Assembly: GCA_039794045.1 (NCBI GenBank)
Contig: JBAMLY010000008.1
Coordinates: 1-34,489, forward strand
Source: Candidatus Micrarchaeia archaeon
GTDB taxonomy: Archaea; Micrarchaeota; Micrarchaeia; Norongarragalinales; UBA8480
Reading direction: 5' to 3'
Length of the DNA stretch: 34,489 nucleotides
The notes below the pieces were generated by a model. That model had not been told where the DNA came from and ran no database searches. It was given only the letters and a program-made list of their open reading frames with translations. Shown piece by piece: positions 6,659 through 22,949 of the stretch. Position 1 is the stretch's first letter. Each line of letters begins with the position of its first letter. The translations under genes and the position numbers were made by a program.

Positions 6659-7450
6659 CCTATTTTGAGATAAGTTGTGTTACACGCGACTGACTTCTCT
6701 TTGTGACGTCGCGTCGTTCTTGCCGCAACGCGTTTTACAGTCGTTTAGGGCATTCCAGCCTTTACAGTGCGCGCGCTTTGAGAAGCCTTTGCGGGTTTCT
6801 TGCAGTGCGCGGGCGTTGACGGCGTCGTGATAATCCGAGGAGACTTCAACAGGCGCTTTTGCGTCGATGACGTTCGTTTCGGGTTTGATGCAGAAGACCT
6901 TGGGAGCAAAAAAGCTGAGAGTTAGTTCTTGCGGCCCTCTACGGCCACGCGCTATCGCGCGTGAGCCTCACACCAGTCGATCCTGCTGGAGGGCACTGCT
7001 ATCGGATTGCGACTAAGACATGCAAGTTTTAAGACCGGGCTTCCGGTCTTGGCGTACGGCTGAGTAACACGTAGTCAACATACCCTAGAGATTCGAATAA
7101 CTTCGAGAAATTGAAGCGAATTCGTTATAGGCAAGGATTTCTGGAAGGAAGCCTTGCTGAAAAGGAGCCTGAATTGCAGGGAGTTCCGCTCTAGGATTGG
7201 ACTGCGTCTGATTAGGCTGTTGGCGGGGTAACGGCCCACCAAACCAATAATCAGTAGGGGCTATGGGAGTAGTAGCCTCCAGAAGGGCACTGAGACAAGG
7301 GCCCTAGCCCTATGGGGTGCAGCAGTTACGAAACTTCCGCAATGCGCGAAAGCGTGACGGGGGTAGTCCGAGTGGCATTCGAAAGAATGCCTTTTGGCCA
7401 GTCCGAATAACTGGCAGAATAAGTGGTGGGTAAAGCCTGTGCCAGCCGCC

Positions 7451-7482
7451 AGCGGCAACAACTCACGAGTTGTCGCCGGTAA
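7451..7482 (+). other. 32-nt BHB intron in 16S 530 loop (about E. coli 526/527)
   Basis: Splits GTGCCAGCCGCC|GCGGTAATAC; helix GCCG/CGGT, bulges CC|A and AA|G, hairpin GCGGCAAC...GTTGTCGC. Confidence 0.9.
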
Positions 7483-7653
7483 GCGGTAATACAGGTAGCA
7501 CGAGTGGTGTCCGCGAATATTGAGCCTAAAGCGCCCGTAGCCGGTTCGGCAAATTTCCTGTGAAATCTTCCAGCTTAACTGGGAGGCTTGCAGGAAACAC
7601 TACCGGGCTTGGGAGTGGGGGAGGTCAGGGGTACGTCAGGGGGAGCGGTTAAA

Positions 7654-7692
7654 TCACGCGCGTAGCGCGACTTGTTGCGCGCGTTGTAACAA
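7654..7692 (+). other. 39-nt BHB intron in 16S 690 loop (about 696/697)
   Basis: Splits GCGGTTAAA|TGCTTTAATCC; helix GTTA/TAAC, bulges AA|T and AA|T. Confidence 0.88.
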
Positions 7693-7774
7693 TGCTTTAA
7701 TCCTTGACGGACCACCAGTGGCGAAGGCGCCTGACCAAAACACGTCCGACGGTGAGGGACGAAGGCCAGGGGAG

Positions 7775-7806
<32 letters not shown>

Positions 7807-7888
7807 AGTAAATGATGCAGACTAGACGTTGCACTTGCTTCGAGCAAGTGCAGTGCCGTAGCGAAGGCGATTAGTCTGCCGCTTGGGG

Positions 7889-7931
<43 letters not shown>

Positions 7932-8073
7932 TACCACAAGCCGTGGATGCTGCGGTTCAATTGGATTCAACGCCGGGAAACTCACCAGGAAAGACGGCAG
8001 GATGAAGCTCAGGCTGAAGACCTTAGCCAACAAGCCGAGAAGTGTTGCATGGCCAGCGTCAGCTCGTGCCGTG

Positions 8074-8172
8074 AAAGAGCAGCTTCCTCGAATGAAGGAA
8101 AGCTTTCCAACCGCGTTAAACGCGCGGGCGTTGCTTTCAGACGAGAGTTGAATGGGAGCTGTTTTTCGGTAC
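8074..8172 (+). other. 99-nt BHB intron in 16S (about 1079/1080)
   Basis: Splits CAGCTCGTGCCGTG|AGGTGTCAGGTTAAGTCC; helix GCCG/CGGT, bulges TG|A and AC|A, long stem AAGAGCAGCTTCC/GGGAGCTGTTTTT. Confidence 0.9.
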
Positions 8173-8820
8173 AGGTGTCAGGTTAAGTCCTGCAACGAGC
8201 GAGATCCCCGTTCACAGTTGCCATCTTTGAAGTGATTCAAAGAGCACTCTGTGAAGACTGCTTGCGTTAAGCTAGAGGAAGGAGGGGGCGACGCTAGGTC
8301 AGTATGGCCCGAATTTCCTGGGCCACACGTGGCATACAATGGCGGAGACAATGGGTTCCGACGCCGAAAGGCGAAGGCAATCTCAGAAACTCCGCCTCAG
8401 TTCGGATTGGGCGCTGAAACTCGTGCCCATGAAGCTGGAATGGCTAGTAATCGCGTGTCATCATCGCGCGGTGAATATGTCCATGCTCCTTGCACACACC
8501 GCCCGTCAAGCCATCCAAGCGAGGCTTTAATGAGGCTCGGACTTAGGTTCGAGTCGAGCTAAAGCTTTGTGAGGAGGGTTAAGTCGTAACAAGGTAACCG
8601 TAGGGGAACCTGCGGTTAGATCACCTCCAATTGGTCGAAAGCGCGAACGCAGAAGTTCTGTTCTCGCGCGAAACTAGAACTAATTCGGAGAATTCCAGGA
8701 ATCAATTCCGCCTGGAAGCGCTAAAGCATCGAGCTTGCCTCGATGATTTGCAATTTCCTTGGTCTTCTGCAAAAAAACTTTTGTGGGCTCGTGGCGCAGT
8801 GGTAGCGCGCCTGCTTTGCA

Positions 8821-8903
8821 AGCAACCCTTTTCTTCGTCGCTTCGCCTTCGGGGTTCAGTTCCTCGAAAAGCGTTGACGGAAAAAGAGAATGGTTGCCGG
8901 GAA
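8821..8903 (+). other. 83-nt canonical intron of tRNA-Ala; intron family B
   Basis: BHB with helix TTTG/CGGG and closing stem GCAACC/GGTTGC; near-identical to the tRNA-Glu intron. Confidence 0.9.
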
Positions 8904-8925
8904 AGCAGGAGGTCGCGGGTTCAAA

Positions 8926-9004
8926 AGCCATGCCTCTTTTCTTTTCGTAGGAGAAAAGACGCTGGGCGTGGCGCAGAGAAAACGCCGCGCCTGACAGCGG
9001 AGTA
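8926..9004 (+). other. 79-nt T-loop intron (59/60) of tRNA-Ala
   Basis: Removal restores TTCAAAT; contains hairpin GCCATGCC...GGGCGTGGC; boundary +/-1 nt. Confidence 0.8.
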
Positions 9005-9326
9005 TCCCGTCGAGTCCATTTTTTCGTGCAGGGCAACGCATTCGATTGCGTGTCTTGCTAACGCAACCGTTTCTTTGGTTGCGCCGCTCGCGAGTAAGTC
9101 CCCTTGATTGAGAGGGGCTTTGTAGAGCGCAGTGCGGAACGACTGCCTCGGGCTTTCAAGCCAGGAGGCTTTGCTTGAAGTGAAGCGCGACAGTGTTTGC
9201 GTTGGAGCGTGGAACGACAAGCAAAAAAGTCGGGTATGAAGCTTTTACAGGAAAGGAGTCTAACGGAAGATCACGTGCATGGAAGCCGCGAAAGCGGTTG
9301 CCGTGTAATGGTCTTTTGGGAAAAAA

Positions 9327-20757: not shown

Positions 20758-20815
20758 TCAAAACACCTTGAAGTAAGAGTGCCGCGGGGGAGAATTGAAC
20801 CCCCGACCTCCAGAT

Positions 20816-20855
20816 GGCTCGAGCGACTTTAAAGCGACGAGCGCTTTTTTTCGCT
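20816..20855 (-). other. 40-nt canonical (37/38) intron of tRNA-Met
   Basis: Removal restores the CTCATAA loop. Confidence 0.82.
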
Positions 20856-20862
20856 TATGAGT

Positions 20863-20946
20863 TTCGCGCCAGCTTTTCCGTGGAGCTTTTTCGGGCAGCG
20901 AAGCAAAGGCTTGCAGCCGAGCGAAGCCGCGACGAAAAAAGGCTGA
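20863..20946 (-). other. 84-nt intron at 30/31 of tRNA-Met; diverged family B
   Basis: Removal restores the CCAGA/TCTGG stem; relaxed BHB; shares CTTTT..TCGTCGC and CGAAAA.GC...ACGGAAAAG blocks with the Ala/Glu introns. Confidence 0.8.
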
Positions 20947-21034
20947 CTGGCGCTCTAACCAACTGAGCTACCGCGGCAAATTATTTTGTTTTTGGGCGAG
21001 AATCAATAAAAAGCGTTGCTAATTAACTTGTTTC

Positions 21035-22778: not shown

Positions 22779-22936
22779 GCTCCAGTCGTCTAGCTCGGTC
22801 AAGGATACCGGCCTTTCAAGCAACCCTTTTCTTCGTCGCTCCGCCTTCGGGGCTCCGTTCCTCGAAAAGCGTTGACGGAAAGGAAAAGGCGCTGCGCAGA
22901 AAGCCGGCGACCCGGGTTCAAATCCCGGTTGGAGCA
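22779..22936 (+). tRNA. tRNA-Glu(TTC) with canonical intron
   Basis: GCTCCAG/TTGGAGC acceptor; CCGGC-CTTTCA|A-GCCGG; CCGGG-TTCAAAT-CCCGG. Confidence 0.93.
22819..22901 (+). other. 83-nt canonical intron of tRNA-Glu; intron family B
   Basis: 60 of the first 63 nt identical to the tRNA-Ala intron (manual alignment). Confidence 0.9.
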
Positions 22937-22949
22937 CTCTTCAATCACT

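Follow-up and report, generated by a model that had tools for sequence, protein, structure and literature searches.

The stretch of DNA analysed here (the window; 34,489 nt, contig JBAMLY010000008.1) is contig C8 of the archaeal genome G000, an assembly of 655,099 bases in 16 contigs that is 92% complete. It contains an archaeal rRNA operon and an RNase P RNA gene (Rfam matches), together with tRNA genes for Ala, Met and Glu. The tRNA-Met(CAT) gene is interrupted twice, and the subject of this study is its first interruption, an 84-nt intron at position 30/31. Sequence comparison suggests that this intron is most probably a copy, diverged but related by descent, of the hairpin element that fills the tRNA-Ala and tRNA-Glu introns. 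The gene is laid out as follows.

20780..20977, minus strand: elongator-type tRNA-Met(CAT) gene with three exons and two introns (read from the sequence; joined exons accepted by ARAGORN)
20947..20977, minus strand: exon 1, positions 1-30 (cloverleaf reading)
20863..20946, minus strand: intron 1, 84 nt, at 30/31, the feature under study (cloverleaf reading and fold)
20856..20862, minus strand: exon 2, positions 31-37, ACTCATA, with the CAT anticodon
20816..20855, minus strand: intron 2, 40 nt, at the canonical 37/38 position, outside the element family
20780..20815, minus strand: exon 3, positions 38-73

The splice junctions were set from the cloverleaf geometry. Joining the exons at these coordinates restores the cloverleaf and yields a 74-nt tRNA-Met(cat) that ARAGORN accepts, and after removal of intron 1 alone the program reports a tRNA-Met with a canonical 40-nt intron. 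The G1:C72 pair and the anticodon stem CCAGA/TCTGG identify the elongator type, and the 9-nt D-loop fixes the first junction as Sprinzl 30/31. The interval 20863..20946 that a preliminary description of this DNA had singled out is exactly this intron, on the minus strand, and the lengths it gave for the Met (84 nt), Ala (83 nt) and Glu (83 nt) introns are correct. An intron at the place of intron 2 is present in 11/11 tRNA-Met orthologues of the same family. A brute-force choice of splice sites with ARAGORN was uninformative, as hundreds of wrong joins were accepted.

The element consists of a 5' block CAACCCTTTT, a variable hairpin and a 3' block AAAAGCGTTGACGGAAAA, followed by a short site-specific tail. 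In its basal stem, AACCCTTTT pairs with AAAAGCGTT. There are 10-11 clear copies in G000: 11 places match the 3' motif of the Ala intron with up to 3 mismatches, and an nhmmer profile of 8 copies finds those copies at E values of 1.5e-15 to 1.9e-4. Additionally, a model for which 27 copies from other archaea, and none from G000, were used (R3) recovers 10 copies (Ala, Glu-TTC, His trailer, Tyr-Asp spacer, Val, Asp, Glu-CTC, Leu, Thr-like and Arg-TCG) at E values of 5.5e-11 to 2.6e-3. The copies in G000 occupy the following places.

Position 37/38: tRNA-Ala, Glu(TTC), Val(TAC), Asp(GTC) and Arg(CCG)
D-loop: tRNA-Glu(CTC), a Leu gene and Arg(TCG)
Outside tRNA introns: the spacer between tRNA-Tyr and tRNA-Asp; immediately after tRNA-His; after a duplicated 5' fragment (17 nt) of tRNA-Thr

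With copies in D-loops, at 37/38, in trailers and in spacers, the element stands at non-homologous positions even when Met is left aside, and the "family B" of the preliminary description extends beyond the tRNAs named there, being a widely distributed hairpin element. All 12/12 G000 copies, with Met and Arg-CCG counted, are sense-oriented relative to the tRNA gene. In the intron copies whose contexts were read, the 5' block begins within the first few bases of the intron, and 10-25 site-specific, exon-pairing bases lie between the 3' block and the 3' splice site. The window holds two clear copies, both in introns.

8821..8903, plus strand: tRNA-Ala(TGC) 37/38 intron, 83 nt; element copy 8823-8885; canonical hBHBh' motif; R3 46.7 bits, E 5.5e-11
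22819..22901, plus strand: tRNA-Glu(TTC) 37/38 intron, 83 nt; element copy 22821-22883; R3 44.3 bits, E 3.0e-10

The Ala and Glu introns share 95.4% identity over 65 nt (blastn-short) and 72/84 aligned columns overall. The strings quoted for the three introns in the preliminary description were found on the minus strand within 20863-20946 (Met), at 8827 (Ala) and, with 1 mismatch, at 22825 (Glu(TTC)), and with up to 3 mismatches allowed the quoted Ala 21-mer has 2 matches, where the expectation from 100 shuffles is 0. The corresponding parts of the element can be read in the Met intron as follows.

20936..20945, minus strand: outer 5' block CAGCCTTTTT, 8/10 bases of the consensus CAACCCTTTT, beginning at intron base 2
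20873..20913, minus strand: stretch aligned by R3 (14.0 bits), with inner 5' block CAAGCCTTTG, loop GCTTCGCTG and 3' block AAAAGCTCCACGGAAAAG
20874..20890, minus strand: 3' block AAAAGCTCCACGGAAAA, read as the 3' block with the GACGGAAAA tail, 15/18 consensus bases with one 1-nt gap
20863..20872, minus strand: 3' adaptor CTGGCGCGAA, in which CTGGCGC is the reverse complement of exon GCGCCAG

The similarity of the Met intron to the Ala and Glu introns exceeds background in global alignment. Identity is 57/99 columns with Ala and 59/99 with Glu; the global score has a z of 3.3 for Met-Ala (reached by 0/2000 dinucleotide shuffles) and 2.6 for Met-Glu (10/2000), and the local score is equalled by 30/2000 and 127/2000 shuffles, respectively. 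TTCGTCGC and CTTCGC directly after the T-run are common to the Met and the Ala/Glu introns. Membership was further judged with four models, all built without Met: the nhmmer profile; R1, a sequence-only covariance model of nine G000 copies; R2, a structure-aware model with a hand-drawn P1/P3 structure (87.9% of cells paired); and R3. The sequence-only model scores Met at 12.7 bits (E 0.0095 in 61,748 bases) over model positions 4-59 of 60, placing it twelfth after ten true copies and one partial match and best in the window after two seed copies; the same model recovers Glu(CTC), absent from its seed, at 29.3 bits. R3 gives Met an E value of 0.044 in 62,425 bases, and the nhmmer profile aligns it over profile positions 4-63 at 9.1 bits. 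A score for the two blocks together reaches S=21 for Met, which by our arithmetic has a chance of roughly 0.002 in one 84-nt stretch; 39 loci in G000 reach S>=21, about 13 of them known copies or mirror readings. Bona fide diverged copies do no better, as the Thr-like copy has S=21, the His-trailer copy has S=22, and the Arg-CCG copy is missed by R3. The inner 5' block CAAGCCTTTG of Met agrees with 8/10 consensus bases, as counted on the sequence.

Several results weigh against descent of the Met intron from the element. The match taken alone is of marginal significance. Identity to Ala is only 57/99 columns, and blastn-short finds no match of Met to Ala or Glu at E<=1. The excess of similarity over shuffles is real in global alignment but modest. 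Genome-wide, Met has an E value of 0.99 and rank 19 with nhmmer, 0.93 and rank 18 with R2, and 0.47 and rank 16 with R3, and the short calibration of the models makes all these E values rough. The structure-aware alignment that had been proposed as a check gives E 0.082 in 57,741 bases (R2), covers only a truncated inner hairpin, and does not by itself establish membership. Adding structure lowered the rank of Met, and generic T-run/A-run hairpins, common near G000 tRNA genes, score like Met under R2. The hand-drawn stems of the G000 copies show no covariation beyond shuffles, and RNAalifold on MAFFT alignments of these copies gave 8 weak pairs in one case and none in the next. The models are split on the 5' block, with the outer one chosen by R1 and the two-block score and the inner one by R3 and MAFFT. 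Beyond the intron-less tRNA-Met genes of two relatives (G001 and G007), the Met site itself shows no target duplication or empty-site pair. A search of G000 (92% complete) found no match to RVT_1, Y1 transposase, tyrosine recombinase or Cas1. The G011 orthologue has weak model scores of its own (E 0.12-0.22). The plain T-run/A-run Met introns of G009, G010 and genus g3 (G002, G003, G004) have no R1 or R3 match, and as these five introns show no detectable likeness, descent of all 30/31 introns from a single insertion is not shown. Finally, the predicted 5' splice site lies in an asymmetric internal loop beside CAGC/GCTG with no clean 3-nt bulge.

Comparison with relatives supplies evidence that the G000 intron alone does not give. 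A 30/31 intron is present in tRNA-Met of 9/11 genomes of the same family (G002-G006 and G008-G011), with very different sequences of 19-81 nt, and is absent from G001 and G007. Occupation of the site in so many relatives indicates that the Met copy is no recent jump in G000. The G011 and G000 introns, from different genera, are identical in 66/84 aligned columns; G011 has CGACCTTTTT where G000 has the outer 5' block CAGCCTTTTT, and CGACC...TCGAC where the consensus has CAACC...TTGAC, so that both strands of the basal stem are changed. The same paired change occurs in the Ala 37/38 copy of G008 and the Ala T-loop copy of G001. The Met 30/31 intron of G008 is a clear copy (R3 E 2.6e-4) and differs from the Glu D-loop copy of G007 by 3 mismatches and one 1-nt gap over a 40-column local alignment. 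Taking these orthologues together with the block order and the model matches, we regard descent from the element as the most likely origin of the Met intron, as the preliminary description had proposed, even though its own match is marginal, with genome-wide E values of 0.5-1.

Local alignment scores reveal which copies the Met introns resemble most. The G008 Met intron scores 31 against the Glu D-loop copy of G007, 28 against that of G008 and 26 against the Ala copy of G008; against the Met introns of G000 and G011 it scores 10 and 8. Similarly, the G000 Met intron scores 16 against G000 Ala and Glu and 8-10 against the Met introns of genus g4. Each genus's Met intron is closer to its own-genus copies, which points to repeated invasion of the site or to sequence exchange among copies.

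The distribution of the element over other tRNA genes of the family is patchy. The tRNA-Glu(TTC) gene is intron-less (75 nt) in G001, G002, G004, G010 and G011, and carries an unrelated 37/38 intron in G005 and G006; in G007 and G008 the element occupies its D-loop, and only in G000 does the element stand at 37/38. In tRNA-Ala, G000, G006 and G008 have the element at 37/38, G001 has it in the T-loop, and nothing is at 37/38 in G001, G002, G004 and G009; with the anchors used, this survey obtained no full gene for Glu of G009 and Ala of G005. At E<=0.001, the 12 genomes of the family hold between 0 and 18 copies each (G000, 9; G001, 4; genus g3, 0, 0 and 0; genus g4, 9, 16, 4 and 18; genus g5, 0, 2 and 1). 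A pattern search of the relatives at up to 2 mismatches was too noisy, its control counts being similar to the real counts. In G007, whose tRNA-Met has no 30/31 intron, an antisense element copy lies directly upstream of tRNA-Met (L015; R3 30.7 bits), and about 134 nt upstream the 5' end of the tRNA recurs as a 12-nt partial copy.

The element extends well beyond this family. A search of one genome per prokaryote species for exact occurrences of the 17-mer AAAAGCGTTGACGGAAA returned at least 120 stretches, 80 of which are listed; among these, 37/80 loci are archaeal and 43/80 bacterial by record title. The archaeal labels among the matches listed are Micrarchaeia/Micrarchaeota, Iainarchaeum, Aenigmatarchaeota, Woesearchaeota, Nanoarchaeia, Parvarchaeota, Methanocellales, Methanophagales, Syntrophoarchaeum, Methanosarcinales, Methanobacteriota, Thermoplasmatales and unclassified archaea; these are labels of metagenome-assembled genomes (MAGs), in which mis-binning is possible. 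Among the matches listed, a loose pattern for the 5' block is found within 100 nt upstream in 36/37 archaeal loci (37 copies; the block match is weaker or more distant in L070 and L114) and in 0/43 bacterial loci. Selection was on the 3' 17-mer only, and 34/37 of the copies listed nevertheless begin with CAACCCTTT. In the alignment of the 27 short copies, the ends are invariant and the loop is free. The stem extension covaries, with 93.7% of cells paired and 17 two-sided changes against 6.6 in shuffles (0/500 reach the observed value), and the 3' tail GACGGAAAA is conserved and unpaired. Some of the archaeal copies are tRNA introns (D-loop, anticodon loop or T-loop), and many lie behind stop codons, between genes or in tandem. 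As in G000, the tRNA-intron copies from other phyla whose contexts were read are sense-oriented.

Some of these copies carry the marks of insertion at the DNA level. Direct repeats of the target, 13-34 nt long, flank 5/33 cross-phylum copies among the matches listed, a signature of DNA insertion, and in 4/5 of these the upstream repeat ends at the 5' block or at most 1 nt from it; only 0.5% of mismatched control pairs have a repeat of at least 11 nt. In one locus (L112), an element copy follows the fourth codon of a gene and is itself followed by a 34-nt duplicate of the ribosome-binding site, the start codon and the first codons, so that the gene start is rebuilt downstream. Elsewhere, two identical tandem copies stand 66 nt apart (L062), and a full copy is closely followed on its downstream side by a further 5' part of the element (L118). 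On contig C10 of G000, at about 7100-8750 (L007), tRNA-Thr has its first 17 nt in duplicate; the partial copy on the upstream side leads directly into an element copy, the true tRNA-Thr gene lies about 130 nt downstream, and T-run/A-run hairpins stand ahead of the Thr genes. This arrangement resembles an insertion accompanied by a long target duplication more than it does an intron. IMG/VR contigs contain 16 exact matches to the 17-mer, and the 5' block accompanies only 3 of them (L208, L212 and L216, the last two in the same context); these are minimal copies on uncultivated viral contigs, made up of the 5' block, a loop of a few bases and the 3' block. The 3/16 matches with a 5' block are too few to make the case for a viral vector, and that reading was set aside. 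The proposal that the upstream flank is copied in inverted form on insertion, which would account for the exon-complementary tail, was likewise dropped, as the mean score over 33 copies was 5.8 against 5.2 in mismatched controls, which is no general signal.

Explanations other than descent by insertion of the element were considered for the Met intron. It is rather improbable that the likeness arose by chance or convergence, with an unrelated old hairpin resembling the element through features common to every stable intron of this lineage, namely a stem of T-run and A-run, CGC/GCG repeats rich in GC, and a tail complementary to the exon. The genome-wide E values, the missing BLAST match, the many generic tRNA-adjacent hairpins with R2 scores as high as that of Met, the about 26 presumably random loci that equal its two-block score, and the short Met introns of G009 and genus g3, which are plain T/A hairpins, all speak for such an origin. 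Yet the two blocks stand at the ends of the intron in the correct order and with the family spacing, and the model match is nearly full length; the orthologous plain-hairpin introns fail to match the models; the G011 orthologue has the paired variant of two undoubted copies; the G008 Met intron is a clear copy; and Met shares TTCGTCGC and CTTCGC with Ala/Glu. Overwriting, in which an unrelated 30/31 intron later had its interior replaced by the element via recombination or conversion, with no insertion at the new site, would suit a site filled in 9/11 relatives by such different sequences, as well as the greater closeness of each genus's Met intron to own-genus copies than to the Met introns of other genera. 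We consider it unlikely: conversion needs shared ends, and only the element blocks are shared, so a prior element copy would be required; repeated insertion at a favoured site predicts the same pattern; and the 66/84 identity between the G000 and G011 introns argues against a recent overwrite in G000.

The element could also be a conserved small RNA module that uses the introns, trailers and spacers of tRNA precursors and the 3' ends of genes for its expression and processing, and would then be selected rather than selfish. The near-identity of both blocks across MAGs of many phyla, the covarying hairpin, the sense orientation of the G000 copies and the conserved unpaired tail all fit such a function, to which we give a low probability. 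No Rfam family matches the element; 16S, 23S and RNase P RNA hold no complement of 10 bases or more; copy number varies from 0 to 18 among close relatives, with 0 in three g3 genomes; and target duplications and decayed copies such as Met suit a selfish insert better. Against rRNA and RNase P RNA, the conserved tail could pair over at most 9 bases, G-U pairs counted, an unremarkable length. K-turn, hammerhead and integron attC readings did not fit when compared by eye with the consensus motifs (no GA on the partner strand, core mismatches, no R''/R' pairing), and there is no Rfam family for the element.

Descent of the Met intron from the hairpin element, which we continue to favour, bears on the claim of the preliminary description that the element reached a non-homologous site in a way that homologous gene conversion between tRNA genes would not explain. 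The exon flanks of Met and of Ala/Glu differ, so conversion of that kind cannot have placed the intron, and this part of the claim stands. Intron-to-intron conversion or re-invasion of the site probably also occurred, and the choice between conversion and transposition as it was framed is too simple.

G000 encodes a splicing endonuclease that may be able to cut relaxed motifs. The 472-aa EndA open reading frame matches PDB 4fz2 over residues 14-387 of 395 (E 1.4e-126) and contains Pfam PF01974 and PF02778; judged by these matches it is a full-length epsilon2 type. The entry 4fz2 occurs in the report of the epsilon2 EndA crystal structure of Candidatus Micrarchaeum acidiphilum ARMAN-2 (PMC3488258), and the ARMAN-2 enzyme is described in the excerpts available as cutting both strict and relaxed motifs (PMC3488258, PMC3239211). 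By analogy, the G000 enzyme may have a similarly broad specificity. An RtcB ligase is also encoded in G000 (E 9.5e-175). In the predicted fold of Met, exon GAG pairs with CTC of the anticodon loop and CGC with GCG of the intron tail, leaving a clean 3-nt bulge AA|A at the 3' splice site between the two helices; the 3' adaptor CTGGCGCGAA and the exon form this helix and bulge. The central helix has 3 pairs and a C.C mismatch. Constraining the fold to the splice-site pairs gives -77.3 kcal/mol against a minimum of -78.4, at a cost of 1.1 kcal/mol. The 30/31 bulge-helix-bulge as modelled is relaxed rather than strict, while the motif of the Ala intron is strict by reading, and from the predicted fold we infer that the Met intron is protein-spliced and of the bulge-helix-bulge type.

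We propose that an ancestor of several genera in this family of small DPANN (Micrarchaeia-like) archaea acquired the element at the 30/31 site. The intron could have survived through its last 10 bases, which would pair with exon bases 22-30 and 32-34 to give a relaxed bulge-helix-bulge that a broad-specificity endonuclease may cut and RtcB may reseal. The copy would then have decayed in place, being partly homogenised with, or replaced by, the current element variant of each lineage. The intron would be of no use to the tRNA and would be tolerated as a selfish insert. That all the tRNA-associated copies in G000 are sense-oriented hints at either an RNA step or selection. Matches to the Phage_integrase family (tyrosine recombinase, Xer-like), absent from G000 (92% complete), are present in 14/14 control genomes.

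Non-autonomous small mobile repeats in prokaryotes, for example MITEs and Rickettsia palindromic elements, are short, non-coding, hairpin-forming, multi-copy sequences of variable number with target duplications, all of which the element shares. It differs from them in its long and variable duplications (13-34 nt), its free loop with fixed ends, the sense orientation of all its tRNA-associated copies, and the removal of its in-gene copies as introns at the RNA level.

Among tRNA introns, the nearest comparison is with the transposed introns of Thermoproteales (Fujishima, Sugahara, Tomita and Kanai 2010, Mol Biol Evol 27:2233, as summarised in PMC4090602, PMC3239211 and bioRxiv 10.64898/2026.10.13.758758). 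As far as those summaries go, the two systems have in common related introns at different tRNA positions and an endonuclease that accepts, or in G000 may accept, relaxed bulge-helix-bulge motifs. Unlike Thermoproteales, the host here is a DPANN archaeon with an epsilon2 endonuclease, and the core is one defined hairpin element that also occurs outside tRNA genes, under many phylum labels and with some 13-34-nt duplications. The recurrent intron family of Thermoproteales has been defined by at least 70-80% identity across tRNA types, in the part of the source seen here (bioRxiv 10.64898/2026.10.13.758758). The Ala-Glu intron pair reaches this level; Met-Ala and Met-Glu fall below it, the Met copy far below with 57/99 columns. 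Like the present genome, ARMAN-2 is described as having introns at non-canonical positions, more than one per gene, and a three-unit single-chain endonuclease (PMC3239211, PMC3488258). The excerpts of those two accounts mention no shared intron family or mobile element, and their examples are at 59/60 and 53/54, not 30/31. In Caldiarchaeum subterraneum, the excerpted account ties intron gain and stray 5' tRNA fragments to a mobile element, in a model in which an integrating 1.8 kb recombinase-coding element disrupts tRNA genes (PMC3293823). Partial 5' tRNA copies likewise lie beside an element copy in contig C10 of G000 and in G007; in contrast to the 1.8 kb element, the element here is 30-110 nt long and non-coding. 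Rfam has no family matching it, and the literature searches made here found no description of this cross-phylum element. Related introns at different tRNA positions are already known; the new observations are a defined cross-phylum element and an old Met site that tracks each lineage's variant.

Other features of the window deserve mention. The tRNA-Ala(TGC) gene lies in the 16S-23S spacer (8785-9018) and has a second intron in the T-loop, at about 8935-9007 and about 59/60, which is a plain CTTTTCTTTT/AAAAGAGAAAAG-type hairpin; R3 gives it a partial-hairpin match only, on both strands. The tRNA-Glu(TTC) gene spans 22779-22937. The 16S rRNA match (6970-8629) is 1660 nt long against the 1478 positions of the archaeal model, which makes about 180 nt of inserted sequence (intron or expansion) probable; R3 finds no element copy in this gene at E<=5. 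The tRNA-Met gene is missed by default ARAGORN and by Rfam. In the window, default ARAGORN reports no tRNA (0/3 for Ala, Met and Glu), and Rfam reports Glu only. Across G000, ARAGORN reports 11 tRNA genes without and 19 with its intron option, and at E<=1 there are 22 matches to the Rfam tRNA model, of which 16 exceed its cut-off. Multiple or non-canonical introns therefore hide many G000 tRNA genes from routine callers, with consequences for annotation: default finders see 0/3 of the tRNA genes examined in the window and 11 genes genome-wide.

These findings bear on how archaeal tRNA introns spread. The route by which such introns reach new positions is still called unknown in reviews and preprints, as far as the excerpts seen here go (bioRxiv 10.64898/2026.10.13.758758, PMC4090602). 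The moving unit can now be named: a short fixed-end hairpin, found at four kinds of tRNA position as an intron, also as a tRNA trailer or spacer, and as a free-standing insertion flanked by target duplications in other archaea. As we read it, the Met copy adds a time axis, in that the site is filled across genera and the copy would be decaying while still tracking its lineage's variant. More tentatively, and with some doubt, the element may be a self-contained "proto-intron", an enzyme-less, fixed-end hairpin cassette of 30-110 nt that spreads within and between archaeal phyla, inserting with long target duplications. If so, it would survive in tRNA genes wherever its variable tail permits a bulge-helix-bulge, its sense orientation would point to an RNA step, such as reverse splicing or RNA-templated insertion by host enzymes, and it would be a main source of non-canonical tRNA introns in DPANN and some Euryarchaeota.

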